Part shown: positions 3,101 to 56,524 of the stretch, one piece after another | Numbering within the stretch: position 1 is the stretch's first letter | How the letters are laid out: each line of letters begins with the position of its first letter | Translations under genes and position numbers: made by a program | The notes under the pieces: model-generated | Database searches by the model: none | The model's input: the letters and a program-made list of their open reading frames with translations, nothing else | Told to the model about the DNA's origin: nothing | NCBI GenBank assembly: GCA_001938485.1 | Contig: MQRK01223612.1 | Location: forward strand, 1 to 60,866 | Length of the DNA: 60,866 nt | Source of the DNA: Girardia tigrina | Lineage: Eukaryota | Reading direction: 5' to 3'

Positions 3101-3269
3101 TGTAATGCCTTTGGATATTATATTTCTTGCACACCAAAATAGTTTGTTGACATATCAAGCAGAAAATTTTACCTTTTTCTTGAATGAAAAAATATTTAAT
3201 TTTCCATTTTTCTTGAAAGCAACGATGTTCACTTTCAATCGATCGTTTTTTACTCGTACTTGGCTTCAT
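155..3269 (-). pseudogene. hAT transposase, frameshifted and interrupted
   Basis: ORF pieces include an N-terminal Zn finger (CLICQQ..NIQRHY..H), FSIAIDESTD, LATDGAP, HQQVLC, and the C-terminal dimerisation motif SMFGSTYICEQLFS. Confidence 0.92.
1121..2055. mobile_element. TG..CA insertion (solo-LTR-like) in the hAT transposase
   Basis: It starts TGTTGAAC and ends ACAATTCA, with GGAAG on both sides (1116-1120, 2056-2060). Transposase homology stops and resumes near these points. It contains an N gap. Confidence 0.6.
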
Positions 3270-8202: not shown

Positions 8203-9669
8203 CATTATTGTTATCTCAATTCAAATATTCCGATAATATGATGAAGCATGTAGAGTGGGAAGGTCTTCTCGAGATAACGACCGGAGAGTGCGGGGACCGG
8301 GATTGAGAGTACAGTTCACCTCTTATCCAAGGGATCGAGCGAGAGGGTCCTTGGATTCGGACGTGTAAGCGAGTCGTGAAACCGTTGTAAATAATTGTAA
8401 ATAACTTTAAAACGATGACTACGATTAATTTAATTATTTTTTTTTATTTTCATTTATTTTTATTTTTCCTTTTGTTGATATTTTGGTATTTCCTTTAAAA
8501 GTTGAAAAAAATTCCAAATTAATTATTCTAACGCCGTTTATAACTATTGTTATACTTTCTGTTTTACATTTGAATTTCTTCTAATAATTTGGGCTATTTT
8601 AACAAATTTTTTTCGGAACATTCTCTAACCAATTGTTATCTTTCGCCAATTTGGTTGGGAGCACCTGGTACATTTGCATCTTGACTTATTTTTTATTTTA
8701 CTAATTTTATTAGCCGTATCGTTTCGTAATTAATGTGATTTATTTGTTAGTTAACTGTCGTAAATGTCTAACCTTTCTTTGCTTTAAAAATTGTTCTGAG
8801 TAGATTTCCATCTGATAAATTTTAGTAATAAATTTTGTAAGGTTTGTAATAATTTTTGTAAGATGCTGTAAGATAAAGGCTTACGAAATTGCAAGTAATC
8901 GTAGTGAAGTGATGTGAATCATGATGCGTTACCTTCGAAGTGTTATACAGATCAGTTTGATTTCTTTGTTTCGTGATTAATATTGAGCAGTTAGAGTTAA
9001 AAAATTAAAATTGTAAAGTGAGATCTCGATTGAAACCATAGAGTCCAGAGCACGTTTACAAACTCAAAGTTTAAGCAGTGAAGTCGAATAAATGGCCAAA
9101 TGTTAATGTCAGCGAAATATGGAAATCAGACGAATATAAACTATTAGAAGTTCTTCGAGTTATCAATCAAGTCCCAGTCTACAATCAATTAAATCTTTAA
9201 TTAAAATCTTGAATCGAATAAAGTCGAAAATCGAAAAATGGTGTAAGAGTAAATTCGAGTAATTTGTGAATGTGAGAGGTTAATGATCAAGAGGACGAAT
9301 AAATTAGATAACAGATAGAATACCGAAAGTGAGGAAATGTTATCAGTGTAAACTCATGGTCCGAATTCAACGTGTTACGACTGTCAGCTCGGGTTTAGGA
9401 GAGTATTGTAAAGTGAGACCTGAGCTAAATAATGCGAGTGATTACGTATCGACAGATGAAAACATGTTACATCCTATTTCGATATGGAGGATAAACCAGT
9501 TTCGATTTCTTTGAGTTGAAGCAGGAATTGATATCTTGGTTTAAAATTCTACAGCTCGAAATGAAAAGAAAAGAGAAAAATATTTATTAACGATCGATCG
9601 ATGTTATGCAAATTAAGGTTCTATTCTTAAAAAAAATTAAACCAAAAATTTAACACATAATATATACGA

Positions 9670-10050
9670 TGTCGTGTTCCCCTTCAAAACAACATTATTG
9701 ATGACTCTGAGCCCCCATCCGTTTTCCATTAGAGTTCAACGGCAACTCTATCAAACTAAGCTAATTACATCTCAACGGGAACAGACACGACTCCTTTGCC
9801 TACATCAACGAATTGTGCAGACATTAGAGCGCCTTCGGGTCCTTAACCAGTAACGAGGATGGCCCGACTGGTGACTGAGCTTCTAGAGGGGATGATAATA
9901 ATTCTATACTACGACTATAACCATACCAACGCACTAATACTCGAAACTACAGGAAACGAAGAGAGCCTCAAGAAAGAAAATGACGATCGGTCCGCGTGTC
10001 CCTTGCATGCTGCAGCCGGTCGGCATCACCCTCCCAGGTTCTTCGCCCCA
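9670..10050 (+). ncRNA. Family-A structured domain, full
   Basis: Pseudoknot CCGTT/AACGG plus AGAGTT/AACTCT (9719-9749), GCC-TTCG-GGT (9831-9840), stem ACCAGT/ACTGGT, GGGGATGAT, and a long stem at 9985-10021. Confidence 0.7.
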
Positions 10051-10841: not shown

Positions 10842-11336
10842 TCAATTCATATTTTCATAGCAAGTTGATGGCAACGAATTCGATTCGGGAACAAAATGAA
10901 CGTCTAATTCACTATTACTTAAATATGTTATTGGGTTTGTGTTTTGTGGATTGATTAAAGGTGTTTGTTCAGTGTTGTTAGTCTGTGAAACTGGAGAAAT
11001 ACTATCAACACTGTCTGAGTCATCATCACGACCGGGAATTTTAATTTTATTCTTACAAATCGGACAATTTCGTTTTTGTTTCAGCAACCAAGGATCGGTA
11101 CAAGAAGAATGGTACGCGTGGTTGCAGGGCAATATCCTTAATTTATCTCCCTCTTTAAAGTCATCAAGACAAATCGTACAAGTTTCAAAAGGGTCTTGGC
11201 CTTTTACAAATTTTTTTTTCATATTAAAGAATTTATTTAGATGATCGAAATATAACATAAAGTCCATTATAATATATCGGCATTGAGCAGTAATAATAAG
11301 ACAAAAACACAAAAAAAGAATAAAACTCAGTATCAA
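10842..11336 (-). CDS. TM plus RING-H2 E3 ligase, RNF13/RNF167 (Godzilla)-like, intronless, no PA domain; start codon uncertain, possibly a pseudogene
   Basis: CTICLDDFKEGDKLRILPCNHAYHSSCTDPWLLKQKRNCPICK has all eight ligands and follows a hydrophobic helix. An acidic/Ser-rich tail contains TEQTPLI. Confidence 0.85.
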   Translation of the reverse strand: MILSFILFLCFCLIITAQCRYIIMDFMLYFDHLNKFFNMKKKFVKGQDPFETCTICLDDFKEGDKLRILPCNHAYHSSCTDPWLLKQKRNCPICKNKIKIPGRDDDSDSVDSISPVSQTNNTEQTPLINPQNTNPITYLSNSELDVHFVPESNSLPSTCYENMN

Positions 11337-12029
11337 AGCACAAGCAAATAACCGAATAAAAAAATAAAAATTAATTAAAACATGAATACATACTTCATAA
11401 CAATAGATTTTCTCTGACTCAGCTAATAGGTTTTCTTTGACTCGGCTCTTCCTAACAATAGATTCTCTCTGTATCGGTTTTGTTCAATTAATAACCAAGA
11501 TTTGAGGAATAATGAAAATTCAACAAATTTTCTCTCTAACAAAAAAAAAATTGCGTGCGGCCTTATATACTTCCATCCGAATCGTTCAAATGTTCACGCA
11601 GGATGTGCGTGATCAACAGGATCATGAGGTAATTTTTTTGTTTTGTCATTCACATATTTATTAAATTCACGCAAGATATTCGTGAATAAACCATCTGGAA
11701 TGTCGACTAGAATTCCAAATGTCAGATGTAAGTACATATTAATTAATTCATATTTTTAATTATCTTTAATTTTCTAGCTTGGCCCCAAGCAGCGAATTGG
11801 AATCCCGACCCGATTCGACGCCCCGACAAGCTGAGAGTCATTTAACACTACATGAGGATAGTCTAGTTTGACTATCCTCAAACACTCTGAACACGGGCTC
11901 TCATGCGTAAGGGGTGTCGGGTTTGGGACAGGGTTTATATGCAGCTACCTCAGGAAAATGAAAGGGTTTGTGTAATTATATCTCTGTCGTAACAACGAGT
12001 TAAACCTAATTACAAGCAATAATCGAGTA

Positions 12030-12420
12030 TCCGGACGAAGGGTTTTGAGAAGCGGTGCGGCAGCCCATAGCATGCACAGAGGCACGTGGGCTGACCATCA
12101 CTTGTTTCTTCGAAGTGTCCTCGCCAGATATAAATAAATAAAATCGACCTTGACGAAATCGAAGAAAATAAAATCAAAAATCATCCCCTCCAGAAACTGA
12201 GTTACCAGTCGGGTCATCCTCGTTACTGGTCAAGAACCCAAAGGTGCTCTAATGTTTACACAACTTGTTGATGTAAGCAAAGGAGGCGCGTCTGCTCCCC
12301 AAGTGTAGTGAGTATCTATGTAGAGAAATAGTGATTGTTAGAATGATTGCCGTTGAACTCTAAGAAAACGAATGGTGGCTCAGAGCCATCATTAATGTTG
12401 TTTTGAAGGGGAGCACGACA
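12030..12420 (-). ncRNA. Family-A structured domain, full
   Basis: Reverse-complement homolog of 9670-10050 with all blocks in the same order. Confidence 0.7.
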
Positions 12421-13747
12421 TAATAATAATAAACAAATTAACCAAATAAACTTTTATTGATATTCAGCAATAATCACATCATTCAAAGTAATTAAAGACA
12501 AAAATAAAATAAGAATAAAAAATGAAATTAAATTAAATACAATAAAATAGTAATAATCGATCCATACCTTTAAAGTAGAATTAATAGAATTAAAATAACA
12601 GTAACATGATCGTGAATTCCAACCGTACTGGATCGACGTACATGGTGCGCATACGCACCGATCAGTATTTATTGTACTGACCGACGGTTGCACCGGTTCA
12701 CTGACCGGTGTGCGCGATCGCGATCGATCGTCTCCGTACCCCGGCTTCAAATGGTGTGTCGTCGGCATACCGGTAAGTATATTATATTATTATATGATTT
12801 ATTGATTTTTGCTTCAGCTAACGCTTCTCACAACCATCACTGTGCTGATCGATCAATTTAATGTATATATTTTTTTAATTTTATTAAGAATAGGTACGGA
12901 TCAAATTGCAACATTTCGTTTCGATTGAAACACACTAATTATTACGAGAATCTGTTTTGGAAAGGAATCGCAACATTTCATCAGCAAGTATACACTGTTT
13001 GATTTTATAATTGTTATTTTATACTTTATATTTTACTATTTTAACGTCTATCTGTACTTAGTGTAATAAAATTAATCCATTTTGGATGACCTAATGGTAT
13101 TTATTTACTTATTTCGGACGATGACGCTCACTCTAATATTTAAAAACGCAGTAATGAAGGGAAATTTTAACACCATTTTGTGGTGTACAAGAGTCTTGAA
13201 GGTACTTGGTAGAGTTCGAGTAGACGACGGTAGGGCAACAATTGCGAGAGAGAGTGCGACATAAAGAAGGAGACATAATTTGTACTCCTTATCTGTCAAC
13301 AGAGTAGTAAATTAATAAATGTGTTATAAGTAATTAATAAATGTGTAATAAGTAAATAAATGAAGTAGCAAATGAATGAATCCTCAACCATGAATATTTT
13401 GATTATAATAGCAATTGATTAGGGTTTGACTTAGCATTTGGTTTAATGGTTGATTTAATTAATTTTTTGTTAAGCTTAATTTTAATCGATTTGATAGTAT
13501 TTGATTTATTATAGTAACATTTAGTCGAGAATATTATTTGATATTTTTAGATAGAAATACTTTTAATAGAAATCATATATGGTTATATTATTTAAATAGA
13601 AAGGTTTCAGATAATTCGAAATAATTATTTAAAAGATTCCGTTTCCTTTCAATACACGATTCTGAACAATGTTTAATTGCAACAATTAGATAAACAGATT
13701 TTATATTAATAAAAATAAAAATGTATTGATAAAAATGTTTTTGTAAA

Positions 13748-16689: not shown

Positions 16690-17073
16690 GACGAAGAACC
16701 TTCTGGAGGTGACGCAGGCCGACTGTAGCATGCAATGGGCACGCGGTCGACCGGCGTTGTTTCCTGACGTCTCTCTCCGTCCGATTTAATTGATAAACTA
16801 ACACAACAAAATACTTAGTTATAGGGTGAAACAATATCAACCCATTTGGACATTGAGACTACCAGTCGGGCCATACCTGTTACTAATTCGAACCCGAAGG
16901 CGCTCCGAAGCACACACAACTTGTTGATGTGCGCGGAAGAGACGCGTCTATTCCCTCAAACAGTGAATAATTATCGAAAGGAATAAGTAGTGCATAAGAG
17001 TTGCCGTTGAATTCTACAAACGGATGGGGGCTCTAAGCTAACAAAAATGTTGCCGAGAGGAGGGAAGACGACA
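16690..17073 (-). ncRNA. Family-A structured domain, full; far end of the element not found
   Basis: TGTCGTC terminus at 17073, followed by the pseudoknot, GCC-TTCG-GGT and the long stem GGTCGAC..GTCGGCC. Confidence 0.7.
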
Positions 17074-17591
17074 AATGAAATTGTGATCGTTTCTCAAGAG
17101 GACACACACAAACGCAGACACCACTAATCAACATCCACATTTACCAAGACATACTCGCATTGACAAAAAAAGAAGACACACACGCACACACTCACACACC
17201 ATGAATCATATTTACAAAACACAAAGGATATGTATCTACACAATTTTACAATTTCATTATTTACACACACTTTCTAATCGATTCAAATTGGTACATTTAA
17301 ATGGACAAAGAAACCCAATCTTATATTATATTTGGAATTCCTCATTAACGACTTTTAACAATTACTATTTATTTTTGCTACATAAAGTATTAAATTGACT
17401 CGAAATTCAAATTATTATTATTTTAATCATTTTAAGTTTAATTCCTTTATTTAATTAATTTATTTTCATTTTAATTTATTTTATTTTATTTATAAATTTA
17501 AAGATAAATAAATAACTAATTTAACCATAAATAAATAAATCAATAATTTAAATAAATCTTTCGGTCAAACCGACTAATTTCCGCTCCAACA
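17074..17591 (-). mobile_element. Family-B terminus (TGTTGGAGCGG) with CA-rich leader, abutting a family-A copy
   Basis: TTCGGTCAAA..AATTTCCGCTCCAACA matches 27203-27235 and 56493-56524. Confidence 0.6.
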
Positions 17592-22875: not shown

Positions 22876-24021
22876 ATCACTAGAAATTTCTGATTGATTC
22901 AAATTTGCTTTTTGTTATTAGATTTTTTTGATTTTTTTCGACAAAAAGCAAAATGAAATAATTTATTGAATTAGAATTAGAAAGATGTTTTGTCGTCATC
23001 TTTATCGAAATTATATACGACACTACGGAAATCTTTTAGAGTTATTAACTCGAGTTTATTGACTAGTCATCAATACTCGGCGTAGATAATCGTAGCTGTT
23101 TGTTGTCACTCTGGATCGTTTCAGATTATCCTCGTCTGGTTGGTCCGATATTCCACTTGGAAACCGCCTAGATTCCTTGTCGTCGTGTGGATTATCGTTC
23201 ATCCTTATTGTTGTGCATCTCACTTTGAATTTTTAACTTCTACATAACTATATATATTATTACTTTATTTATATTATATATTTATATTATGTATTATTAT
23301 ATTGTTATATTATGTATTTATATTATCTATTTATTTTTATGAATTTATTTTATGTATTATTATGTATGTAATTATTATTATTATTATTATTATATACATA
23401 ACTACCATACGTAGTTATGTAGAAATTAAAAAATTAAATTTTGAATTTAAAATTGGTGATCAATAAAATGATCATTGATTTTAATCAGAAATTATATTAC
23501 TTACCTCAAATTAAATTTTTAATTGCCGTAAAAAAAATCAATATTTTTATTAATTAATTATTACGGCTAGAATTATATACAAATTGCCACTGACAACTTA
23601 TGTATTGAGATTTCCTGTTTTTTACGAATTCGTTTCAGTATCTCAACTTTAAAAAGACACAAAAGAAAAGGTCCCGAAACTATTTATTCAATATTTTAAT
23701 TCAAAGTATCAAAAAACACTGCTCAAATTATATTTACGGATATTCCGAGTATTCGAAAGAATAATTGAAGAGAAAATTATCCTGACAATTTGTAGTCAAT
23801 TTCTGGTTGTAACGAACAATTCTGACAGTTTGCAGTCAACTTTATTTTTTTATTGTGATGAACGATTTACAACCCCTACAGTTTGAGTATTTTAGTAGGG
23901 GTTTTTTTGGTTGTGAGTCATACCCAGTTGATTGTTAATCAAGGTGTTACAAATAAATTCTATTGATCCCCTCTCTTAATATTATATAATTATAGTGGTA
24001 ATATAACCCAACTATAATAAC

Positions 24022-25400
24022 TGGTGTCAGAAGTTGGATATTGCATTCTAATAGCTCCCAATTAAAACCCTTATTTAATTATTTCTTTTTATTCACGTTG
24101 TTTGCCATTATGACTACTAAGGTGAAACTGAAAAATAAACAGGCTGATTTTATAGAACACCGGTTCAATAATAAGAACAAAATTTATTTTAAAGTCCCAG
24201 ATTTTAAATTAGACTGTAATGGTTCTCCTATACCTTGGTTAGAAACATGTATTAACCTCTTTAATTTTAATGATATTTTCGATAACAATGTTATATTAGT
24301 TCTTATATTATTAATAATCTACCACCGAATATCCTCTTCAAATTTGGAGATCAACTTCAACAATTTTCTAAAGCTACAAATCCTCTCAATAACCTACGCG
24401 AAATTTTTCAGAATTCTTTTCCATGGGACCAAGATCTGATTTTAAATGAATATTTCCATGATCATATTTTAGGTGATAAGAAACCCTATATTTTTCTCTC
24501 TGAATTAATTGATAAATTAAAAGATGAGCAGGGCCTAGTAAATAACTGCCTGGTAAAATTTTTCTTCTACAGACCACTACCCTGTAATATCAAACACTTA
24601 GCCAGAAACTAGTAAATTGGCTGACCAATTATATCAAAGTAATTCCTATAATGTCAACGCCATTCATAAACTTAAAATAAACGAAGAAAATGAAAGTGTG
24701 ACAATCAAGACCCTTTTAAATAAAATCGAATCTTTAAATGAGGAACTCTGTTCCCTAAAAGGAATCATAAAAGACCAGGAAATCTTCATAAAAAACTTAA
24801 AAAACAACCAACAGCAAAGGATTACAAAAATATCAACAACTTTCAATACAACAGAAATATATATTTTAATTCTTTTGACAGAAATTATTCTGACAGTTCA
24901 AAGAATTATAATGTGAATTTATGTTTCTACCATAATGAGTACGGAAATTCAACTTTTCGTTGTATCAAACCATGCAATTTTAATAATAATAGTTTAAACC
25001 CAGGGAGTCACTTGGATTAACACCCTTTCCGAGTGACGTTAATAATATTTAGAGTATCTGTAAATAATTTACCTCATTCATTTTTATTTGACTCCGGTTC
25101 AGTCGATTCTGTTTTACCTCGTTCGTTCGATGTTCAGCGTTCACACAATAATTCTAGTCTATATGCAGCAAACGGTTCTTCTATTGAAACTTTCGGCATG
25201 CGTAAATTAAAGATAGTTCTGGGAAAGGATATTTTCTGGTGGAATTTTATAGTTCCTAATGTACGACAGCCGATTTTCTTAGTAATTTTGGACTTCTAGT
25301 AGATTGTAAAAATCATTCTCTAATTTTTAAAGATAAAATATATTACGGTATCGGAGAGCCTAATGTTTGTTCTATTAAAAAAACTTTTGTTCAATACATT
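24022..25400 (+). pseudogene. Ty3/Gypsy gag-protease remnant with tRNA-Leu-type PBS
   Basis: PBS TGGTGTCAGAAGTTGGAT at 24022-24039, gag motif LCFYHNEYG..CIKPCNF, and aspartic protease FLFDSGSVDSVLP..LYAANGSSIETFG. Confidence 0.88.
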
Positions 25401-25640
25401 TTAACTGAAATTCCTAAAACAAAGGTGACTACTTTTTACAATTCTATTTTCTTTAAAAAAAATTCTAAAAATAAATCAATTACTAAAACATCAATCAACA
25501 AAAAACATTTTTGTACGTGAGATTATTCCGGTTAATAGTTTAACAAATACATTTTTTTTCACAGAAGGTAGATTTGTCTGTCCAAACCGATATTCATAAT
25601 ATATCATATATTTATGAATATTTATAAATTAATTTAATAA

Positions 25641-25849
25641 TACTGTTAATTTTAAAAATAACGGCAAATGTTTTTTGAGAATTAGAAGACATTTTAAAAT
25701 ATATTGAATAACGGAAAGGATCAGCACATTCGAACGTAGATATGCTCTCTGGACGAATGTGAAACATATGTAAAATGCTAAATGCAACACAAGTATTCAA
25801 AAACAGGGAATGTAAAGACCAGAAAATTTAATTCTATCGCATCAGAAAT
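25641..25849 (+). repeat. Duplicate (about 205 bp) of 27233-27442, the end of Gypsy RNase H
   Basis: Near-identical sequence encoding YIE.RKGSAHSNVD.LS. Confidence 0.85.
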
Positions 25850-26304
25850 AATGCCAAAACATCGGTGATTTGACCTTCGTTACATCTAAGAACAGATATT
25901 TTAATTCTTTTGAAATTAAGCCTTCAATTTGAACACTAATATTTTCTTTAGTAATAAATGAGTTTCATTTTATTTCTAGATACAATTTTAATGTCAGTTT
26001 TTGAATTGTAGAATATGTTTTTATTTTTGAAATTTTCAAAGATGTTTGCAAAACTCTAATTTATAACATTTTCCTAGTCCTAGGGTACTCTTGTAAAGAT
26101 TGATTTTAAATGAGAGTCAAAACGTTTTACTTGAACTCATTGAGATACAAATCTTCTAATGACTCAATATAAATACGGAAGAGATCAATGAGATAAAAGC
26201 GTAAACAGAGTCTCTCAGAATCACCAACCAGAACATGGTACGACTTGTTATTGATTTTGATTGATCATATATTTATGAATATTTATAAATTAATTTATTA
26301 ATAC

Positions 26305-27235
26305 TTGGACGGGATTCCGTGTCTCCACGTTGTTATTTTTTTAATCAATAGTTTCGCTTGAATTTTATAATTATTTAAACTCGTAACGATCTTTTTATCG
26401 TTTATTTTGGAATTTGTCAGCAATATCATCATTATATTCAGCGCATCCAGCGCGTCTCCTTCAATATATTCGGCTTGCAACAACGCGATATAATTTTCCC
26501 ATTTATTACCAATTACTTTTCCGCAAGTGAAAAATCGTATCGGAATAATCATTCTTTTGTTGTCAATCACAAATGAAATTTATAAAATTGCCAAAATCAA
26601 CAAAAAGACAAATTTTTCCCCTTTTATTTTTAATTGAAACAGTTTTTAATAATTGATCACACTTCGCTTGAAATTGGAAACCTTTTTTTCAAATTAGAAT
26701 TGTTATTGAAAAACTTTTATTTTTTAGAGACAAAGACTTGATTCAAAAAATTGACAAACTTTTTTTTAAATTGTGAAAACAATTCACACAAAAAAACAAA
26801 GCTCCTCACACACACACTCACAAACAGACATTCACCAATCATTATTTACATATCAAACATACATACACTCTGCATTCATACATTTCATTCAATCAAAACT
26901 ACCTTACATAATTACTTACCTCAATCAATTACATAATTACATTTGAGGCTCACCATTAATTAATTCGTATAAAGAATCGTTTATACCGGTTTCGTTTATG
27001 AATTTATAAATCAATGATTTACATAGATGTCTGTTATTTAAAATAGTACTGATACAGATTATTTAAATTAATTATTATTATTTTTTTTATTTTAATTATT
27101 AATTTGTTAATTTTAATTAATTTATTTAATTATTTTTAATTTATTAATTTAATTGTTTAATTATATATGTTTTATTTATAAATTTCTGAAACTGACAAAA
27201 ATGTTCGGTTAAATCAGCAATTCTCCGCTCCAATA
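26305..27235 (-). mobile_element. Family-B element carrying an RPB10 fragment
   Basis: Terminus T(A)TTGGAGCGGAGAATTG, TGGTGAGCCTCA at 26944-26955, a CA-rich leader, and a 24-mer at 26305-26328, all shared with 55326-56524. Confidence 0.7.
26433..26552 (-). pseudogene. POLR2L: RNA polymerase subunit RPB10 N-terminal 40 aa, fused in frame to unrelated sequence
   Basis: MIIPIRFFTCGKVIGNKWENYIALLQAEYIEGDALDAL. The first Cys is replaced by Phe and the RYCCRRM half is missing. Confidence 0.92.
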
Positions 27236-28260
27236 CTGTTAATTTTAAAAATAACGGCAAATGTTTTTTTTGAAAATTAGAAGACATTTTAAAATATATT
27301 GAGTACCGGAAAGGATCAGCACATTCGAACGTAGATATCCTCTCTGAACGAGTGTAAAACATGTGTAAAATGCTAAATGCAACACAAGTATTCAAAAACA
27401 GGGAATGTAAGGACCAGAAAATTTAATTCTATCGCATCAGAAAAAGTTTCAGTCACCTCAAAAAAGTTTAGTTGTCCGACGAGGAAATTAAAAGAAATGT
27501 TCATGAGATACATCAGTTGTTGACTCACACAGGAGCAAAGAATATAGAAAATCTACGGAGCAAAGAATATTCAAAGAAAATCCAACAAGTCATTCAGAGA
27601 TGTGTAGCGTGTCAAAAAGTTAAAGTATAACGAAATAAAAAAAAAGATGTGAAATTACAAGTAACTGATATTTTCAAAAGTAATTTTTATAGACATGTTG
27701 GCCGTTGACACAGAGAGTTGGAAATAAGATATATATATATATATATATACTAAATGTATAAAAACATTTCAAATACAATCCAGAATCGTGCATATTGATA
27801 AATTGTTGTCTGTTGATTAAAACTCTTCTTTAAAATCAGAAGTTTTAAATACATATCATTTACTGCTATATCGAAACATAACGAAGCAACTGTTCAGAAA
27901 ACTATTCTCAATAACTGGATTCTACGTTTTGGATTTTCAAGAATTCATGTTGATTGTTGGAAGGTGTTCGATTTAAAAACATTGAAGTAGATTGCTACAA
28001 GCTTATATGCAATGTTATGCTAAGTCCGTGCCATCAAAATTATAATGGAAAGATAGAACGACAATTCCAGACTATGATTGTCATGATGAGTACAACGTTT
28101 TACGATAGAAGAAAAACAGATTGGGTAGAAATTCTGCCGAAAATTGAGTAAAATTTGAATTTAACTACATAAAAATTAATTGAAGAGTCTAGCTGAAGTT
28201 TTCTTTAGTAAAAAGATCTGCAGGGAAAAATGGTACCCTTCAGGATATACAAACAGCATA
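27236..28260 (+). pseudogene. Ty3/Gypsy pol remnant (RNase H end, integrase)
   Basis: HQLLTHTG..CVACQKVK zinc finger, NWILRFG, HQNYNGKIERQFQT and DWVEILPKIE, with many stops. Confidence 0.85.
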
Positions 28261-31960: not shown

Positions 31961-32716
31961 TGTGTTTGACTATGTGTTATATTACTACTAAATTTATTTA
32001 TTTTTATGAAATTTTATTTCTTGATCTTTATTTTTATATTTTATGGAATATTTATTATTTATTTTTGAAATTATGCTATGCATATAAATATTTTGAATTA
32101 TTAAAGTTCTTTTTTATAATTATATAACACGATGATGTTATATAATATCATTTGTATTAATATTTGTATCGTAAGAGTAAACTAAGAGATTTTAATTTTA
32201 GATCAGTTTTTACTGTCCAATATTTTAAATTGTTTTAATGTGTAAATGTTGTGATGCTGTATGTTGATTTAAGTATGTTGAATTTAGAATTGTGATTCTC
32301 CCGCCCAGATGGAAATTGGTATTTTTTATTTAAATTTAAAGTGATTGACTATTCGAACATAATTAAAATAATCATTTGATAAGTTCATATTTTTAATTTT
32401 AACAATTAATATTTTATAGTAAAATTTAAATTAAATGCATTTTAATAATTTGATAACATTTTTATTATTTGGGGATTTATTAAGAAATGGTTAAAATTAT
32501 TATTTTTAATTTATATTTTTAGAAGTTAAATATTTTTAAAAATGACTTAGAAAAATTATTCGAATAATTATGATTAAAAATAGAATTAAGAAAACCAATT
32601 AGAAGGATGACAAACGATGAAAGACTTTCTGAGAGTCATAATGACTCTAAATGTGATTGTAATAAAAGTTCAAAAGCGACTTGTCTAAATGTTCTTAAAG
32701 AAATGTTCTAAAAAAA

Positions 32717-32744: not shown

Positions 32745-32957
32745 TTATCGGCTTGCGGCGTTCTTAGCCAACTCTCCAGGCAGCAGCAGTTTCACTCCCG
32801 TCTGGATCTCTGTGCTCGTGATCGTCGACTTCTTGTTGTAATGCGCCAATCGACTGGCCTTCCTTGCAATCCGCTCAAACACGTCGTTCACGAAACTGTT
32901 TATGATCGACATGGCTTTGCCAGAGATGCCAGTGTTTGGGTGCACCTGCAGCAGCAA
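32745..32957 (-). pseudogene. H2B: Histone H2B fragment
   Basis: [50 protein letters not shown]. The N-terminus is absent and the C-terminal helix is internally deleted. Confidence 0.95.
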
Positions 32958-33431
32958 GAATTCTATTATTTGTCTATTCAGAAATTCGTTTTTAATCTTT
33001 TCATGATAAATGTTTTTCTAGAATAATCCCGTGCAAAGCAATAATGATTTTTTTTAATTGTCAGTGATGGAATACGAAATATAGATGGTTATTGGTATAA
33101 TTTCTAATTCAATTCACAAAAGAAAAGTACAGAATAGATGTGAGATATATAAGTGTACATAATAATAATCATGAATTTTAATAATTACTTTTATATCATA
33201 TAAGATTATTATCAGAGAAAATATATATTTTTGTTCTACCTGGAAGAAATAAACGTTTTATGAAATTTAGGATGGGGATCATTTTGCTTATCAAAAGTAA
33301 AATTGATGCAATTATAGATTTACAATCACTATTGAACCTTAACGAAGTAAAATGAATGTATAATTAAATTTTATGACCAATGTTGAGTCTAACTTTTAGG
33401 AGATGCGTAAATAAAATAATCTATTCAACCC

Positions 33432-33480: not shown

Positions 33481-36400
33481 AAAGTACTTTCCATTATTTA
33501 AGTTTAGACGTGAAGATTTCTTTCTTTTTATATTATATAAAATATAATAGACGAGTCAAATAGATAGTGGTTTCGTAGCTGCGACACTCTGACATTGGGC
33601 GGCAGAATTCGGGTCGCGGGGAGGGAAAAAGACGAAGATCACTAGTTCGGTTCCCCACTATTCCTGCACCACATCGACACCTCTAATCGTCGATACCGTG
33701 ATGCAATCCATGTGACACTTCTTGACAGTCTGAGAGCACGTATGACCGCTGTAACCATCCACGACCGAGATAAAATGGCCAATATTTTCAAAGTCATCTT
33801 TTCCATTATAATCAGTAAAACTCAGTAAAGTGTGATTAAGGTATATGGTTCCAACATTGCATTTCTCGTTTACTAATTTGAAACTTTTGTTTTTTTTATT
33901 TCATCCTTTAGATTTTTTAATCTATTTAAATATTCTTCTCGATTATTTAATTTCACACTAAATTCAATCATCTCCAGTTTTAGATTTTCCAAAACATCAC
34001 TTTTATTTAAAATATTATTTTCTAATTCTTTCTCTTTTTTGAATAAATCCATAGCTTCTTTCAGTATACTATCCTCCTCATCAACATTTATCTTGTCCGA
34101 AACATCTGGCATAATTCTCACATCTTTCCTTTTAACTTGATCCCTAAGACTCTTCGGCACAATGAAAAGCTATCAAGTTTGACCATATGGAATTTTCACT
34201 GTCTGACAAATTACCAATGTATGTGATATCATCCGCTGCATTATACGTCTTATGCTGAACTTTTTGTACATTGACATGAGAACTCAGTTAATATTGCCCA
34301 TTGAACCTCTAACAATCGATTATTACTGTCTTTTTGTGAATAAGAATCACTCTTATATTTAATTTTAAAAATCGTTTATCTTGACTTTATATTTTATAAT
34401 AATTATCACTTTTGCGCCCTAAATGGTACTGGTCCAGGGCGAAAAGTGGTCCATAGTTCAAGGTCAACGTCAAGATTTTAAATATTCACAAATTGACCTA
34501 CTGTTGTTCTAAATGGAAAATTAAAATATATATATTTTTTAATTATAAAACCTTTTGTATTAAAAAAATTTAATGTTTTTGTGATTAAGAAAATTTAGTA
34601 GTAATTTGCATGTCGAAATCGTTAATTAGCAATATTTGTTTAATGTAAATAAAATTTGAATTTCGATCGAATCTTTTTTTCAAATTTAATCATTCTATTA
34701 ATAAAGCTTGGAGTTTAGAAAATATAAGTGTATTTTACAATTTTTATATTGGTTTAAAACAAGTAAATACTAAATACTATAAAATTTTAATTATTATTTG
34801 TTTTATATACTTTAAATTTTATTCTTGATTATAATAATAGATCAACAGTTATGTGAGGAAAATTGTAAATTGTTTGAATGTGTAAATGTATGGATGCTGT
34901 ATGTTGATTTAAGTGTGTTAAATTTAGAACGGTGATTCTCCCGCCCAGATGGAAATTGGTATTTTTTATTAAATTTATTAAATTTATGACTATTCGAACA
35001 TAATTAAAATAATCATTTGATAAGTTCATATTTTTAATTTAACAATTAAAATTAAGTTTAATAATATTTAGTAAAATTTAAATGAAATGCATTTTTAATA
35101 ATTTGATGACATTTTTGTTATTTTGGGATTTATTGAGAAATGGTAAAAAATATTTTTTAATTAATATTTTTAGAGGTTAAATATTTTAAAAAATAACTTA
35201 GAAAAATTGTTCGAATAATTATGATTAAAAATTAAATTAAACCTGTCACTTTAATTACAATTTCCAAGCACCTCGCTGTAGTATTTTAATATTTTTATTT
35301 ACCAAGGAATCATCGTCTATTATAGTGATACTGTTTGGAAATTTTTAAATTTTTAACTTTTCCAATTCAAAACTTACATATTAGATTTTTTTAATCATGA
35401 TTTCATTTTAAACATTCTAAATCGTTTTTTTATTTAAAATCAGTATTTAATCGACTACTACTTTTTCTCTAGTTTTATAATTTATTATCTCCTTTTCGTA
35501 AGACAATAAATTATTTTTTCTTTCAATTCTGCATTAATTTCATGTAATTAACTTTGCACTTTTTTGTTTTATTTCCATGTCCTGTAATTTGTCATTATGA
35601 ATCATTTCCGAATTTTCAATTTGATTTTTATAATTGCTTTCGATTTCGAGAATTTTTCTTTGACGTTTATCGATTAATTAATTTTTTTCCAATTTTAAAA
35701 TTATTTTCTAAACTTGAAATCTCTTTCAAATTTAATTGTAATTTCAGATACCCGATTTTTGTGACTCGTAATGAGATTCTTGATTTTCCCATCATCATCC
35801 GATTGATTTTTCGAATTATTGAAATTTTTATCTGAATTAATGTTATCGACTGCTTTTTTTTAATTCAATAATATTCGGTATTGAATAATACTGGAAAGTT
35901 GAGTTTTAATCATTAACATTTTCCTTTTCTTTATCTATAATGTTAGATATTGCGGTGATTGAATACCCATCTGTTTTACGTCTAGATGTTTCTTCGTAAC
36001 TTTTTTCTTTACAATTAACAATTCCAGACCGATGTTCCGATTTTTTTACTATCCTTAATTTCAATCACATTTTTAAGTACTTCTGGTTTTAAATTAATAC
36101 CCATAATGACATCTTTTAAATGAGAACAAATCTGATCATTATTTTCTCTTACGAAAGTATTATCTAATAGATCTGAGACTTTTGTTCAATCCAAAATTGA
36201 TATCTTTTTCATAATCTTCACTTTTACTATCAGATGTTGCTTATTAAATTCGGTTCATGATTAATAACATTCAAATCATTTGAAGTTATCTCATTTTCTG
36301 GGTTAAAACACTCAGGGGGTTCCACAATATTCCCAGTAATTTTGAAACATTCTTTAAAATTATTTGAGTCTACTTAACTATTTCTATTGGTGCATCGTAA

Positions 36401-37177: not shown

Positions 37178-38990
37178 GGGAACGTTCGCTTATTACGTAA
37201 CACTTTAGGGGGAGGGGGTCAATGATTTTGTTACGGTTTGTTACGAGGAAGGAGGGAGGTTCGAAAGGTTGTTACATAAGAAAAAAATATTTTGCATTAT
37301 TGCTCTACATTTCATTCCGTCTTTAAAAAAGAATATCTTTCAATAAAATGCATTTTTTCAGAATATGTTAAGTTAAAACTACATCAGGATATTTAGTAGT
37401 AAAGTAGAATGTTTTTACAAATAAAAAAAATTGAGAAGTGACTGATATCAACTTTAGTGAACTAAAAATGCAAAACAATCATCTTCAGCCAAGAAACTCT
37501 TGTTCTATTGATGGTAAAAAACATGTTAAAATAGTTCCAGTTCCCTTAATCAAGGCCTTGTGAGATAATCATAAAAGACACCCGGATTCTGTTTTTTGCA
37601 CAGCTACTTACAATAACCTCTGTGAGCCTGCATTATTTTTAGGTCCTGAGGAAGTAGTAATCATTAGTCAAGACGATAAGGCAAAAGTACCGATTGGTTT
37701 ACCTGCAGCTGATTGTCAAGCGCCGTTGTTGATGAACATGGAATATCGAGTCACACTTCCTGATCATGATTGGTTTATTGCTCAACAACACAAGTTGATA
37801 CCTTCAGTTTATGCTGAATTAACGATTGATAACAACGGTTTTGGTGATCCAAATGCAGTTCAATATTCTGTTCCTACATACATGGCTGTAAGATCAGGAA
37901 AGCATTCTCATTCGACCGCATATTCGCATGCTAAAGATTTTGAACGTTTATATGACATTGATCAGTTCAAACGATTTCTTTTCGGTGAAAATAATTTACC
38001 AAAACCTGTAATGATAATTTTAGTTGATGGTGGTCCAGATGAAAATCCGCGTTATCAAAAAGTAATTGAAACAGCTATACATCATTTCATCAAACGTAGT
38101 CTTGATGCGATCTTCATACTAATGCTCCCCAATCGCAGTACATTCAATCCAGTAGAATGTCGAATGGCTCCTCTTTCAAAACAACTGTCAGGACTCATTC
38201 TTCCACATGATAATTATGGTACCCATCTTGACTCAAATGGAAAAACTATAAATAATTATTTAGAATACAAGAATTTTAAATTTGCTGAAGAAGCATTATG
38301 CGAAGTTTTCTCAAATGTCATCATTGATTCTTTCGAAACCGTTGCTGAATTTATTGATCACGATAGCTCTAAAATGGAATCAACTAATTTAATTCACAAA
38401 TCAGAATCTTGGATTGCCCAACACGTTCGATCAACTCAATACATGATACAAATTGTAAAATGTTTAGACAAGAATTGTTGTGGAACCATTCAAAGTAAAT
38501 TTCATAAAATCATTAAATCAAGATTTTTACCGGCCCCAATTCTTCTACATTATGCTCCAATGATTGAAATGGAATCGATGGATATCAACAAATTGAAATA
38601 TACTTCACTATTTCAAAGCCTTCATCTTGAATCACCAGAATCACCATATGACCAATATTGTCCTAGTGTCAATGACAAAGTTCAATCAAGAACATATAAG
38701 AAGTGCAAAATATATTTTGCATCCCTTACTTTATTAAGCAATCATAAAAAAAATCACTCCCGAGAAGTGATTTCTCCTGCTGCAAAGACTAGGAAAAACG
38801 AGTGCTACGTCAGCGTGAGAGAGAATTTATGGTCATTACGGAAGAATCACCAGGATTGGATACATGCGAATGGGTAGATATGGATGATGTGATAGTAGAT
38901 TCAACAATGAATTTCGATAAATCATCCGAGGATTCCATACCAGTTTTTGACTTAAATTAGCGTTTAAACCCTTGGGTAAATGAATAAATG
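37178..38990 (+). mobile_element. Zator DNA transposon; right TIR not found
   Basis: TTA|GGGAACGTTCGCTTATTACGTAACAC terminus (GG start, TWA target), followed by a G-rich tract and a transposase. Confidence 0.75.
37480..38987 (+). pseudogene. Zator transposase (largest open piece 37726-38877)
   Basis: SQDDKAKVPIG, LPDHDW, HKLIPSVY, VDGGPDENPRY and FNPVE.RMAPLS motifs. There is an upstream stop and a probable 3' frameshift. Confidence 0.8.
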
Positions 38991-43649: not shown

Positions 43650-46600
43650 ATATATAAAATTTTTTTATTAATAAATAAATATATTTTTTTGAGATTTTAA
43701 CTAATAATAATAAATCCAAATAAAAAAAATAAAATAATAATATTATTTTCAATTAAATAATAATAATCATAATAATAATAATAATTCTAAATCATAATAA
43801 TAATGATAATAATAACTAAAATAAATATTAAAAATAAATAATCATAATCATAATAATAATTCTAATTAAATAATAATAATAATAAAATAAAATAATAATC
43901 ATAATCATAATATTACTATCTCAAATTAAATAATGATAACATATTTTAATGATAATAATACTACAGAATTAATAATAATATTTAAATATATACATATATA
44001 TTTATAAGTATTTTTTATTAAAATATTTATAATAATAATAATAAAAATAATAATATCTCTTTTGTTATATCCAACCGAACGACAAACTCCGGACCTGAAA
44101 TTCCGAAGTCCAAATCGAAGCCAGGGAAGATTTTTATTATGATTATTTATTTTTATTATTCTTTTTTTGTAATTATTTCATTTTATTTGACTTTGTATAT
44201 ATATAAATATATACACACATATACACGTATATATACAAATATACATATTTGAATATATTTAAAAGACTAACGGTTTTCTATATAATAATTTTTTTAAAAG
44301 ATTTTTTTTATTAGATTTAAAAATTTAATTTATATTTTTCGTAACCCCAACACTTTCATTTAAAATAATATTTTACACATTAAGTTTAATAAATAAATAA
44401 ATGATTATAATATTTTTATGAATGGTTATGAATTTATTTATGAATATTAAAATCGTTAATTTTGTTTAAAAATTTGTTAAACAAAATAATTATGGTGTTA
44501 GAAATGTATAATTTTCAGATCTAATACTATATTCTTTTAGGATTCGTAAAGCCTCGGTGGCATGGATACTTGAGTAAGAAAATCCTATTCAAATTTCATA
44601 CATTCTGGACGCTATATTCAACAAACATTAAATCCATAGGAATATCAATAATTGACGAAATTGAAAAGTAATAAAATATTTTTATATTCTTTTTTACTTT
44701 TTTGAAATAATAGGTCTTGTCAATTATTTGATATTCATCTATGTGATGGAAATACACGACTTTACTACACATGTAGTGAAGTCGCCGAAATATTCAATCG
44801 CATGAATATAAAAGACAAAACCTATGCGACATATACAAATATGATGGTTGAATCATCAGAATTCATAAAAAATGTTCTTAATAAAATAAATGATCCAGAT
44901 TTCAATATAGAGGCTCAATCATCTTTTTTGAATGGCCTTCTTTTGGACAATTGCAAAGGATTGGCAGAGACACTTCAAAAAATTAAGTTTGAATGCCGTC
45001 AAGTAAAATAAATAATATTTATTATTATGTTTAATTCGTCTTTCCTTTTTAAATAGAATATAGATTCTCAAAAGCTACACGTTACAATGGGAATTATAAA
45101 TGCGCTAAAATTATTACTATTGAATACCAAAAACAATAGTCGTACATAATGGATTTTACGACATTTTTGCTTTTTCTAATTTTTTTCTAAGAATATAAAA
45201 AAGAAAGTATAACTGAAGAATCAGATGATTTAGTGATAATTTTTAGTAATTTAGATTTAGTAATAAGAACGTATAATTTTTTTATATTTATAAAATTTTT
45301 TATTAATAAATATATTTTTTTGAGATTTTAACTAATAATAATAAATCCAAATAAAAAAAATAAAATAATAATAATATTTTCAATTAAATAATAATAATCA
45401 TAATAATAATTCTAATAATAACTAAAATAAAAAATAATTCTAATAATGATAATAATAACTAAAATAAATATTACTAAAAATAAATAATCATAATCATAAT
45501 CATAATAATAATTCTAATTAAATAATAATAATAATAAAATAATAATCATAATCATAATATTACTATCTCAAATTAAATAATGATAACATATTTTAATGAT
45601 AATAATACTACAGAATTAATAATAATATTTAAATATATACATATACATATATATAAGTATTTTTTATTAAAATATTTATAATAATAATAATAAAAATAAT
45701 AATATCTCTTTTTTTATATCCAACCGAACGACAAACTCCGGACCTGAAATTCCGAAGTCCAAATCGAAGCCAGGGAAGATTTTTATTATGATTATTTATT
45801 TTTATTATTCTTTTTTTGTAATTATTTCATTTTATTTGACTTTGTATATATATAAATATATACACACATATACACGTATATATACAAATATACATATTTG
45901 AATATATTTAAAAGACTAACGGTTTTCTATATAATAATTTTTTTAAAAGATTTTTTTTATTAGATTTAAAAATTTAATTTATATTTTTCGTAACCCCAAC
46001 ACTTTCATTTAAAATAATATTTTACACATTAAGTTTAATAAATAAATAAATGATTATAATATTTTTATGAATGGTTATGAATTTATTTATGAATATTAAA
46101 ATCGTTAATTTTGTTTAAAAATTTGTTAAACAAAATAATTATGGTGTTAGAAATGTATAATTTTCAGATCTAATACTATATTCTTTTAGGATTCGTAAAG
46201 CCTCAGTGGCATGGATACTTGAGTAAGAAAATCCTATTCAAATTTCATACATTCTGGGCGCTATATTCAACAAACAATAAATCCATAGGAATATCAATAA
46301 TTGACGAAATTGAAAAGTAATAAAATATTTTTATATTCTTTTTTACTTTTTTGAAATAATAGGTCTTGTCAATTATTTGATATTCATCTATGTGATGGAA
46401 ATACACGACTTTACTACACATGTAGTGAAGTCGCCGAAATATTCAATCGCATGAATATAAAAGACAAAACCTATGCGACATATACAAATATGATGGTTGA
46501 ATCATCAGAATTCATAAAAAATGTTCTTAATAAAATAAATGATCCAGATTTCAATATAGAGGCTCAATCATCTTTTTTGAATGGCCTTCTTTTGGACAAT

Positions 46601-46885
46601 TGCAAAGGATTGGCAGAGACACTTCAAAAAATTAAGTTTGAATGCCGTCAAGTAAAATAAATAATATTTATTATTATGTTTAATTCGTCTTTCCCTTTTA
46701 AATAGAATATAGATTCTCAAAAGCTACACGTTACAATGGGAATTATAAATGCGCTAAAATTATTACTATTGAATACCAAAAACAATATAGTCGTACATAA
46801 TGGATTTTACGACATATTTTTGCTTTTTCTAAATTTTTTCTAAGAATATAAAAAAGTATAACTGAAGAATCAGATGATTTAGTGA
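43650..46885 (+). repeat. Tandem duplication, unit about 1.65 kb, containing an (AAT)n tract, an LTR-like end and exons of an unknown gene
   Basis: Identical ORFs at 44802 and 46451 (offset 1649), with short GT-AG introns around them and a few SNPs and indels between copies. Confidence 0.92.
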
Positions 46886-51050: not shown

Positions 51051-52630
51051 CAGTGCTTAACATAATTTTAAGACCACCCAAATTAAAACTATTTTTAATC
51101 ATCTTTGGTATTTGTTTACTTTAACTTTTAATAATAGACACTAAGTTTTGTTTTTCCTAAAGTTTTTTCCAATAGAGCTTGAATTTGATGAAAATGATCA
51201 TTTTGTGGAAAATCGTCACGTAGGTGAGTAACCTAATTTATAAAATTCTTTATTATTGCATATTATATTACACATGACTTACTACAGCGTTTACTTTTAT
51301 GCAAGTCAATTTCATTGACTTTTTCTAGTTAATTAGTTGTCTAATGATGTATGATATGTGTTTAATGACGTTCTATAATGTTTTAGCAACCTTGACCTTG
51401 ACCTTTACACAGATATCACCATATTATCGATTGATTTGTAAATGTCGCGGTGGTTACTGTGACGGGGCTTCAATGTCACTGATTAAGTGAATAGTGTCCG
51501 TACATCGTATAAAAACTGGATTTTGAGTTGACGGTGTTCGATTTATTGAAGAAGCGGATTATCGAGATCGTATATCCCCAGGTGATGGAGTGCGATCCGA
51601 CATTCAAAATAAGAGGACCCTGGGTCGATAAGAAGTACGGAAACGTGCCATTGGCATTCCACGGATTGAAAAAGCTGTCGAATACTGAGCTCCTCTGAAC
51701 ATTACCACTGTAGTCTACTAAAACTTTTTAATGACAATAAACGATTTGTATCCCAGAAATTTCTTCTGAATTTTTGTAGGGCTCATCAAACAAAACTTTG
51801 ATTACTCATTGGTTTGATTGATTAATCGCATCGTTATGCGATTTTTTTTATTTACTGCATTTATGCTGTTTAGTTTTTTAATTATATTGGTTAAATAACA
51901 ATCATACGAAGAGGTTCATTCATATTTATGGTATTTTTTTATGTTTTAGAATAATCCATACAAGATGGGTAAGCGATGCAGTCTCTCTCCTACAAAACTT
52001 TCACAGGTTATTGCTCTCAAGAGCATAGACCTTAGTGAAAGAAATATTTCCAGTCAACTGGGGATACCCAAGACTGCCGTCCATGGAGCAATTGTAAAGT
52101 ATAAAACGTCAGCATCATTCCGTGATGCACCCTGAGCAGGCGCTCCGAAGAAACTACGCCAGTCGATAACCGCGTAATTCGACGAATGGTAGTTGCTAAC
52201 CCTCGCATCATCACTTGTGACATTGGGGTTAATCTACAGGAGTCAGGTGTGAAGGTCAATAGGATGACCATCAGCAGGTGATTAAAATTGATGAACCTAT
52301 CAGCCTACAAGCCAACCAGAAAGCCAATGTTAACAAAAGCGATGAAAGTGAAGCGCCTCTACTTTGCAAATCAACACAGACATTGGACAGAAAACAACTG
52401 GCAGATAGTTATGTGGTCAGATGAGTGTTCAATTACTCAGTTTGTGGAACGTATTTCACATGTAAGAAGGCCTATTGGAGCTCGATATAGCGAAAGGTAT
52501 ACAGTACCAATGATGAAACATCGGCTTCAATAATGATTTGGGGATGTGTGAGCAGCTATGGGCGTGGGGCTTGGTGATCTTGGAAAAGAATGTAAGAATG
52601 AATTCCAAGATATATACTGACATGCTAAAG
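51051..52630 (+). mobile_element. Tc1 transposon, 3' truncated, transposase decayed
   Basis: TA|CAGTGCTTAAC TIR; MGKRCSLSPTK.. from 51964; RKPMLTKAMKVKRLYFA..HWTENNWQIVMWSDE; MIWGC. Confidence 0.9.
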
Positions 52631-52639
52631 ATTCCCTGA

Positions 52640-55292: not shown

Positions 55293-56524
55293 ATTTTTAT
55301 ACACAAGACCTCAACATTAATACCTTTGGACGGGATTCCGTGTCTCCACATTATTTTTGAAAGGAGACGGTAATAATCGCCTTTCATTTTTAAGAACACT
55401 TTAATGAGCGGAATTCCATCTCGTTTACGCAATTCAAATTTACAAAGGTCTTNNNNNNNNNNNNNNNNNNNNNNNNNNNNNNNNNNNNNNNNNNNNGTTT
55501 TTACGGAATTATTTTGGTCATTAGAATCTTTTGTATTCTCAGAATCTTCACAACATGCAATAATATCGATATTTGGTAGATTATTTTGGTTACGATAATT
55601 ACAGTTTTCAAAATCCTTATTAAGTAATTCAATACAAGCGGCTCCGACATTAGATTCCAAATCTGCGATTAGAACCAAAACATTAAGCATGTACCTTCGT
55701 GATTCAGAACCAAAAAGTCTATCATATAGATTTAAAGGTGAATTTTTTAAATCAATTAAATTTTCGCCCGAGAAAACTTTTTTTAATCCGTTCAAAATAT
55801 CTTTCAAATAATGAAGAGGTAAAATAAATTTTGCTCTTTTAAATTTAACATTGTAAATATTAGTAATGTCAAAAGAATCAGACATTAATTTTTATTAATC
55901 CGTTGGAAGCTTCAATATTTAATTATAGTTCACTTTTTAATCGAACTTTGTTATTGGATCACAGTTCACCTTTTTAAAATTGTTATTGAAAAATTGTGGC
56001 TGATTTTCATTTTCAAAAAACAAATCACACACCACACACATACTCAAACCAATCACATTCCACATCAAACAAAACATGCACACACACCCACATGCAATCC
56101 AAAGGTTCACTCAATCAAATCACACCACACAATCACACAAACAACTCACTCACCAGACAGACATTAGCATTCAGAATTAAAGAAATTAACATAAAAAAAT
56201 GAGGCTCACCACTTGATTATACATTTTCAATTAAAATTGCATAATTTGACCTCATTCAAATCAATCAATTACCACGAACATTTTCTCTTTAAAAATTCAA
56301 CAATTTCAATAATGAAACTATGAAATTCGGCAATCAAAAAAAAAATACTAAATGTCTGTCTCTTATTTAATTGTTTCCACATTCAGATACCCATTTATTT
56401 AATTTAATTAGTCTATTTAATTTATTTAACTATTTATTTAATTTATTTAATTATATTTTTTAATTATATATTGAAAACTGGCAAAATAAATGTTCGGTCA
56501 AAATTGGCAATTCTCCGCTCCAAC
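53852..56524 (-). mobile_element. Family-B insertion
   Basis: Boundaries come from the split transposase. Termini are GTTGGAGCGGAGAATTG and CCCAATA, with TGGTGAGCCTCA at 56200-56211 and the 24-mer at 55326-55349. The TSD is imperfect. Confidence 0.7.
55226..55885 (-). CDS. Unknown cargo ORF in the family-B element (spans an N gap)
   Basis: ATG start with about 129 open codons before the gap. It occupies the same slot as RPB10 in the other copy. Confidence 0.5.

Follow-up and report, generated by a model that had tools for sequence, protein, structure and literature searches.

The stretch analysed here, 60,866 nt of a Girardia tigrina contig (MQRK01223612.1; hereafter the window), carries on its minus strand two solo LTRs and a third, shortened LTR (Table 1). 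A first-pass annotation, made from the letters alone, had described two copies of a family with a fixed scaffold and exchangeable cargo, in which a terminus, a 12-mer, a TG-rich leader, the motif TTTTTCAATAACAATT, an ATG-started cargo frame and a 24-mer follow each other in the same order. The positions bear out that order, the TG-rich stretch included, and also the reading of the copy 1 cargo as an RPB10 fragment (PF01194, E 7.8e-14 in Pfam). Each unit is a single LTR that encloses its cargo. The 12-mer TGGTGAGCCTCA lies 277 and 311 nt from the left ends of copies 1 and 2, respectively, and the right-end 16-mer has two matches in the window at up to three mismatches, against 0.08 expected. 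The terminus and the 24-mer of the annotation are present, but each reaches into a 5-bp target-site duplication (AGTAT; AAGGT), the former by its first T and the latter by its final bases.

The frame read as WRHG at the right end is indeed common to the cargo ORFs of both copies. The annotation had regarded it as uncertain in copy 2, where the ORF crosses an N gap; it is supported there by the ATG-to-W distance of 537 nt, which is the same in eight of the ten gap-free copies of that type. The tail of the copy 2 cargo has a weak Pfam match to 14-3-3 (E 0.073), and the identical peptide is found in a host 14-3-3 gene. A third terminus had been placed at 17591. A diverged copy does exist there, but it starts at 17588, is not exact and has neither the 12-mer nor a right end; it is interrupted about 520 nt in by another repeat, an arm of which, related to the inverted arms at 9669-9896 and 12180-12421, cuts it near 17070.

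Table 1. Features of the window (positions in the 60,866-nt stretch)
Feature	Position	Strand	Basis or remark
Solo LTR, copy 1, 927 bp, TG...CA	26306..27232	(-)	family-end matches; left end at 27232
Target-site duplication AGTAT (5 bp), left of copy 1	27233..27237	(-)	
Target-site duplication AGTAT (5 bp), right of copy 1	26301..26305	(-)	
Copy 1 upstream variable slot	26964..27053	(-)	host exon piece (locus L295), sense
Copy 1 conserved 12-mer	26944..26955	(-)	sharp right border of variable slot
Copy 1 TG-rich, ATG-rich stretch	26800..26943	(-)	bounds approximate
Donor-like GGTAAGT within that stretch	26920-26914	(-)	
Copy 1 TTTTTCAATAACAATT motif preceding cargo	26698..26713	(-)	
Copy 1 captured RPB10 mRNA piece	26418..26591	(-)	host gene L155; 5' UTR remnant, ATG at 26552, ~40 codons
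Copy 1 in-frame tail	26328..26417	(-)	different donor, not traced; longer in sister LTR family
Copy 1 right end (22-mer), read WRHGIPS	26306..26327	(-)	PBS next in 5' LTRs
Copy 1 flank duplicate without LTR	25590..25848	(-)	empty site, one AGTAT
Solo LTR, copy 2, 1,196 bp	55327..56522	(-)	left end at 56522; includes 44-N gap at 55453-55496
Copy 2 target-site duplication AAGGT	56523-56527 and 55322-55326	(-)	
Copy 2 12-mer	56200..56211	(-)	
Copy 2 TTTTTCAATAACAATT motif	55993-55978	(-)	
Copy 2 mosaic cargo ORF	55349..55885	(-)	ATG at 55885; N-terminal piece without identity, shared middle piece, 14-3-3 remnant (55399-55368)
Copy 2 right 22-mer	55348-55327	(-)	
Third LTR, diverged, shortened	17070..17588	(-)	left end, AT-rich head, TG-rich stretch; lower bound approximate
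Presumed decayed hAT-like transposase	155-3269	(-)	
Inverted arms of another repeat	9669-9896 and 12180-12421		around RING-finger-like ORF
RING-finger-like ORF	10842-11483	(-)	
Presumed gypsy-like gag/protease	24002-25299	(+)	
Direct repeat	32219-32336 / 34859-34976		near the fragment at 32745-33017
Presumed histone H2B-like fragment	32745-33017	(-)	
Presumed further transposase-like frame	37564-38877	(+)	
Tandem duplication, ~1.65 kb	43665-46660		identical 101-aa frame
Presumed BEL-like gag piece	52527-53042	(-)	

Family ends and parent element

In the fragmented 1.43 Gb assembly that we searched, the left 15-mer has 2,251 exact matches, the right 22-mer 106, and a degenerate right-end pattern 2,021, with a reversed-pattern control of 0 in each case; the genome holds ~2,000 LTR copies. 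Among 76 LTRs examined with both ends present, 12 are followed by a PBS, three are preceded by a PPT and 61 are solo. The 5-bp target-site duplication of the solo copies is exact in 52 of 61, has one mismatch in six and more mismatches in three, and the 52 exact ones comprise 47 different sequences. Gap-free LTRs are 740-1,304 bp long (24 measured). The paired LTRs of locus L118, flanked by the duplication ATCAT, are 99.1% alike (a 329-nt length difference aside) and contain the same cargo, as do those of L114 (98.1%), which indicates that the cargo goes through replication as a part of the LTR.

The PBS, TGGTGGCCAAGATGGGG, stands 5 nt beyond the right end of the LTR at 118 sites (CA-N5-PBS) and can pair over 19 nt with the 3' end of tRNA-Ile(AAT) genes, for which there were 12 pattern matches, ARAGORN calling three genes in two of six loci. 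The PPT AAGGGGGGAGAATT precedes the 3' LTRs. The first-pass annotation had offered the 12-mer TGGTGAGCC as a possible PBS and recommended comparison with the species' tRNA 3' ends. We reject this candidate: it lies inside the LTR, with the real tRNA-Ile PBS just outside the right end, and a single tRNA-end pattern built from it had 0 matches (control 2). Among 29 gap-free LTRs the 12-mer reads TGTGAGCCTC in 12 and GGTGAGCCTC in 11, and its TGG start is not kept.

In L111 the domains ubiquitin, DUF1759, CCCH fingers, RVT_1, Peptidase_A17, rve and DUF5641 follow in this order, in pieces, and are succeeded by the PPT and a second LTR. The protease is represented by a motif only, with no Pfam match in that region of L119. 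BEL Gag usually has its own type of zinc knuckle; the fingers of this Gag score in Pfam as zf-CCCH types. The nearest proteins (P0001-P0003) are distant Pao-domain proteins of 24-28% identity. By every sequence feature examined except the type of zinc finger, the parent is a BEL/Pao element. The proposal of an LTR-derived gene-capture vehicle stands as regards LTR origin, capture of host genes and exchangeable cargo, but not as an internally deleted vehicle with its cargo between the ends.

Contig C197588 has a pol match 3.1 kb upstream of a right 22-mer of the type present in the window. Close pol matches are few, amounting to 25 rows in 23 contigs at 78% identity or above among the 150 listed (150 of 1,285 candidates scored). 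The interiors between paired LTRs measure 3.4-7.5 kb and are coding; in four of the six copies with a PPT-preceded second LTR they measure 3.4-4.2 kb, too short for pol, and L168, L114, L118 and L120 are pol-less derivatives of this size. Several further structures were seen around the ends of the internal region. The 5' leaders (e.g., L009 and L070) have tandem units of 27, 30 and 36 nt with a palindromic GGGGCCGTGTCCCC core after the PBS, a possible packaging or dimerisation signal. The sequence preceding the PPT of L114 can fold back on the first 40 nt of the LTR through a 15-bp inverted repeat, with the PPT and the LTR start in the loop (-16.3 kcal/mol, a value without a shuffle control). 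In L121 an LTR stands between PPT and PBS and is followed by a different, gypsy-looking gag/RT.

Captured host mRNA in two LTR slots

At least nine host gene families occur as cargo, mostly as 5' parts that carry their own ATG. Pfam matches at E<=0.001 were obtained for 13 of 19 in-frame cluster representatives (19 of 36 clusters), one of them probably spurious; the families are RPB10, 14-3-3, LSM, kinase, longin/synaptobrevin, USP8, Usp and ankyrin, to which L111 adds Sec1, and we take the genes concerned to include LSm3, RSK, SEC22 and Sly1. The profile match of the leading cargo starts at position 1 for RPB10 and kinase, 2 for 14-3-3 and USP8, 3 for Usp and 5 for LSM. The annotation had left room for RPB10 as a one-off secondary insertion into a family with one ORF in all its other copies, which fails in the face of 83 RPB10-like matches in the genome and at least eight other cargo families.

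For 14-3-3, comparison with the host gene identifies the captured sequence as that of spliced mRNA. Measured against the host 14-3-3 gene (L209), the cargo of L220 and L223 retains the host 5' UTR and exactly lacks two UTR introns (42 and 52 nt) and a 48-nt coding intron, the last being absent from all six aligned 14-3-3 cargo copies. The RPB10 cargo retains ~43 nt of UTR and 40 codons of its host gene (L155); intron loss is not clean here because the 50-nt UTR gap has GT at its start and no AG at its end. In the window, the RPB10 piece lacks its first Cys and breaks off at codon 40. Neither a poly(A) tail nor a separate duplication accompanies the cargo in the copies read, and a host source was traced for three pieces only.

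Cargo pieces are also stacked, in that LSm, USP8 and the copy 2 piece without identity each finish in a 14-3-3 remnant. The entire 24-mer has given way to the 14-3-3 piece in L120 and L220, where the junction is a shared CTGTCC, one base short of the LTR end; the former, the single such 5' LTR genome-wide, is still in frame over the PBS. Apparent junction similarity of this kind was seen for 14-3-3 and RPB10 only. The N-terminal piece of copy 2 has at least 150 genome matches; searches for its donor gave no accepted Pfam match (DUF7621, E 0.026, was disregarded), no Atlas match and, in a search for longer proteins, no homologue among 107 candidates, and the 20 long-frame loci examined are all LTR copies, LTR parts or a 14-3-3 paralogue. 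The LSm host gene was not found among the 150 scored out of 301 candidates.

A sister LTR-like family (L169, L170, L171, L177, L178, L179) has the ends TGGTCGCG... / ...GCTGAGATACA and shares the 12-mer, the TG-rich stretch and the RPB10 piece, with a longer cargo (a ThiF match and a weak chromo match); the likeness of the sequences suggests exchange between families. RPB10-like sequence also occurs in L162, L163, L165, L166 and L167, as short N-terminal pieces in another repeat context and as a divergent full-length paralogue.

Upstream of the 12-mer, as far as the AT-rich head, lies a second slot. It is hypervariable, with 43 types in 49 gap-free LTR halves, and therefore the constant scaffold consists only of the ends, the AT-rich head, the 12-mer and the TG-rich stretch. 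The scaffold is less fixed than annotated, as the stretch ahead of the 12-mer differs between copies 1 and 2 and one subfamily lacks the 24-mer. Two upstream slots were searched and one was traced to host mRNA: the slot of copy 1 matches a host exon over ~90 nt, and in L105, which has a longer version of it, two host exons are joined at the exact splice junction, with frame-breaking indels. The host-sequence search gave no clear source for the slot of L174. The same slot donor is shared by L105, L290, L291 and copy 1 of the window, in which the cargo differs (USP8/14-3-3 mosaic, copy-2 type, RPB10), which shows recombination between subfamilies.

The border of this slot at the 12-mer is sharp, to within ~4 nt over 62 copies, and donor-like GTRAGT sites stand just after the 12-mer in 43 of 62 related copies versus 11 in shuffles. 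The 12-mer may be a transcription start, a strong-stop point or a splice donor. The sharp border would agree with a strong-stop point there and removal of the TG-rich stretch by splicing; a start downstream of that stretch would fit too.

Reading frame and selection

For the frame count, loci were found by DNA pattern alone and right ends with 300 clean bases were retained (n=54). The WRHG frame is open for at least 60 codons in 44 of them, and each of the other two sense frames in 0 of 54; stops per 100 codons are 0.65 in the WRHG frame versus 11.05 and 9.72 in the others. Since the counted copies are related, the number of independent events is that of the donors, about nine. Off-frame or antisense pieces gave a Pfam match in one of 149, a frameshifted part of the same cargo (150 of 151 pieces scanned).

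In 5' LTRs the WRHG frame crosses the PBS and a repeat array, then a middle piece of Hsp90 and ubiquitin, and the repeat spacings behind the PBS are multiples of three in 120 of 126. Stretches of this kind include a 915-codon frame (6 X) in L168, from the same RPB10 ATG as in window copy 1 through Hsp90 and ubiquitin, and 355 open codons without N in L009, to the contig end; in L118 and L125 the ubiquitin end and the Gag DUF1759 motif share one frame. The frame of L168 ends in coiled-coil-like repeats. Most 5' copies are decayed: by distance 11 of 20 leaders are out of frame, and a path to ubiquitin free of stops exists in only four of 20 rows (three loci). A single frame spanning LTR to pol was not observed in any copy examined. 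Ubiquitin retains its own Met in the copies read. Its C-terminus is of the LCGG type, with Cys at position 74, in 15 of 20 and LRGG in only two of 20, the search pattern itself having required GG.

Between the 12-mer and the first in-frame ATG lie 5-25 ATGs, so the RNA must either start downstream of the TG-rich stretch or lose that stretch by splicing. In the 100 nt before the cargo ATG there are 32 ATGs versus 105 expected (59 related copies), a scarcity that the host UTR alone could produce. The RNA search gave contig-level runs alone, with small shares. Two records of RNA contigs that cross the LTR end and the PBS (X2 record 11, X3 record 19) have fewer than 31 letters on the LTR side and are uninformative on start, strand and level.

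The substitution analysis covered four cargo types in 76 copies, all differing in their flanks, and took the neutral model from the private spectrum. In this sample, which was partly chosen by protein search and favours intact copies, shared substitutions include 0 stops versus 4.4 expected and private ones 4 versus 9.5, dN/dS relative to neutral is 0.79 (shared) and 0.75 (private), and indels are multiples of three in 3/3 shared and 17/36 private cases; the contrast between private and shared is not significant for stops or for indels (Fisher p 0.31 and 0.23). The shared changes of the 14-3-3 set have a synonymous excess (16 synonymous to 24 nonsynonymous). An earlier set, without neutral baseline or de-duplication, had three shared indels in the Hsp90 region, none a multiple of three. 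Our reading of these sequences is that the open frame is constrained and the peptide little.

Origin and meaning of the cargo

Taken together, the evidence makes it probable that these are BEL/Pao solo LTRs with swapped pieces of spliced host mRNA, likely acquired by a jump of RT onto co-packaged mRNA and likely kept only if in frame with ubiquitin-Gag. Minus-strand synthesis would start at the PBS, and RT would switch at a short shared sequence to a co-packaged host mRNA, copy toward its 5' end and then return to the element RNA. Later captures would overwrite the upstream part of earlier ones, the stacked remnants staying beside the right end, and the captured product would be copied into both LTRs, recombination between which would leave solo LTRs. 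Such template switching would account for the sense orientation, the 5' bias, the intron loss and the stacking. In-frame products would be favoured if, as seems likely, Gag is translated from the captured ATG, or if RNA with an early stop is destroyed; selection for the open frame may thus act through Gag translation from that ATG or through escape from nonsense-mediated decay, with little selection for the cargo protein. More speculatively, host deubiquitinases may cut after the ubiquitin, which could thereby free Gag from its variable leader, although most copies have Cys at position 74.

A tentative alternative accepts the capture as described and makes the frame a by-product: Gag would start at or near ubiquitin, the captured ATG would not be its start, and out-of-frame captures would be lost through early-stop decay or blocked reinitiation. 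The near-neutral amino-acid change in the cargo, the many upstream ATGs and the retained Met of ubiquitin are in keeping with this, whereas the N-terminal position of the leading cargo pieces (profile starts 1-5), the inclusion of host 5' UTR in both traced cargo cases and the scarcity of ATGs ahead of the cargo ATG, for which the host UTR could again be responsible, argue for the captured ATG. We consider it unlikely that cargo is kept for an effect on the host or on silencing, be it through truncated 14-3-3, LSm and RPB10 peptides or through host-like sequence that blunts small-RNA attack. The donors are conserved housekeeping genes present in hundreds of copies, the 14-3-3 set has its synonymous excess and captured pieces in maize serve as siRNA reservoirs according to PMC13317346; but cargo types freely replace each other and form mosaics, the RPB10 piece of the window is truncated and without its first Cys, pooled dN/dS is equal in shared and private changes, and abundant mRNAs would be expected in particles regardless.

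Short inverted TGGA...TCCA ends and ~1 kb units with a target duplication might also recall a non-autonomous DNA transposon of the Pack-TIR type that takes up genomic DNA, or LINE-made retrocopies inserted into LTRs. Such an origin is highly improbable and we regard it as refuted by the intron loss together with the linkage to PBS, PPT and pol: PBS and PPT adjoin the same ends, Gag/pol lies between paired LTRs, introns are absent, and the cargo retains 5' parts and, in the copies read, lacks both a poly(A) tail and a separate duplication. Pack-TIR elements need terminal inverted repeats and carry genomic cargo, in contrast to the 4-nt exact inverted end and the absence of introns here.

Capture by template switching at the LTR, the reading that we prefer, applies to the LTR a model that Tan et al. 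2016 (PMC5131818) put forward for LTR-mediated retroposition in animals. These retrocopies and maize Bs1 share with our family partial spliced mRNAs, short shared junction sequences, chimeras of several parents and further amplification. The retrocopies described there replace part of internal ORFs, in few cases, whereas here the cargo lies in the LTR, is kept in solo LTRs, amounts to hundreds of copies for each donor and stands in a Gag-leading frame; the internal host pieces are Hsp90 and ubiquitin only, all other cargo being within the LTR. With BEL/Pao elements (PMC3118150) the family has in common TG...CA LTRs, a 5-bp target-site duplication, a tRNA PBS, a PPT and the order Gag(DUF1759)-RT-Peptidase_A17-integrase-DUF5641; it is unlike them in having host mRNA at two LTR slots, an ORF that begins in the LTR, an Hsp90 piece and ubiquitin before Gag, and CCCH-type fingers.

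Other elements share single features. GAG of Ty1 follows a UTR of 53 nt and begins before the PBS (nt 95-104), which its ORF crosses, but the start is Ty1's own fixed sequence (PMC5454406) and not an exchangeable host piece. The TRIMs Cassandra, Helenus and Ajax have host-RNA-derived sequence in both LTRs; theirs is one fixed, non-coding piece derived from tRNA or 5S (PMC10886601), in contrast to many protein-coding mRNAs in a coding family. A foreign retrotransposon piece lies in the LTR of BARE-2 (PMC13317346). Pestiviruses have captured cellular ubiquitin in a polyprotein ahead of a functional protein (PMC8310069); cleavage was shown there, whereas in this different kind of element it is a possibility, and most copies have Cys at position 74. 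Burro, a giant gypsy element, has host domains including a ubiquitin/SUMO-like motif in its polyprotein, with the extra domains internal and downstream of Gag and, as far as described (PMC6431247), without exchangeable LTR cargo. Our literature search, outside which lay Repbase Reports, most subscription papers and supplements, found no description of exchangeable, in-frame mRNA cargo in an LTR, and a sequence search elsewhere with the LTR of the window turned up no look-alike.

In this genome, partial genes for 14-3-3, LSm and RPB10 are false in hundreds of cases, which matters for annotation. Among LTR elements gene capture is known as an infrequent event of the internal region; here capture is routine and in the LTR, so that every captured piece is doubled, multiplies with the element and persists in solo LTRs. 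We also entertain, as a possibility short of an expectation, that the LTR is a start-codon capture device: RT would swap modules of 5' UTR plus ATG before Gag, ubiquitin would let host enzymes cut the leader off and the second slot would reshuffle the LTR of nearly every lineage, making the element a moving, host-like target for small-RNA silencing and scattering hundreds of promoter-linked chimeric ORFs. The family provides template-switch events in a dated series, and its two slots supply an internal contrast, the frame being kept in one and not in the other; this allows a direct test of how translation constrains retroelement RNA.
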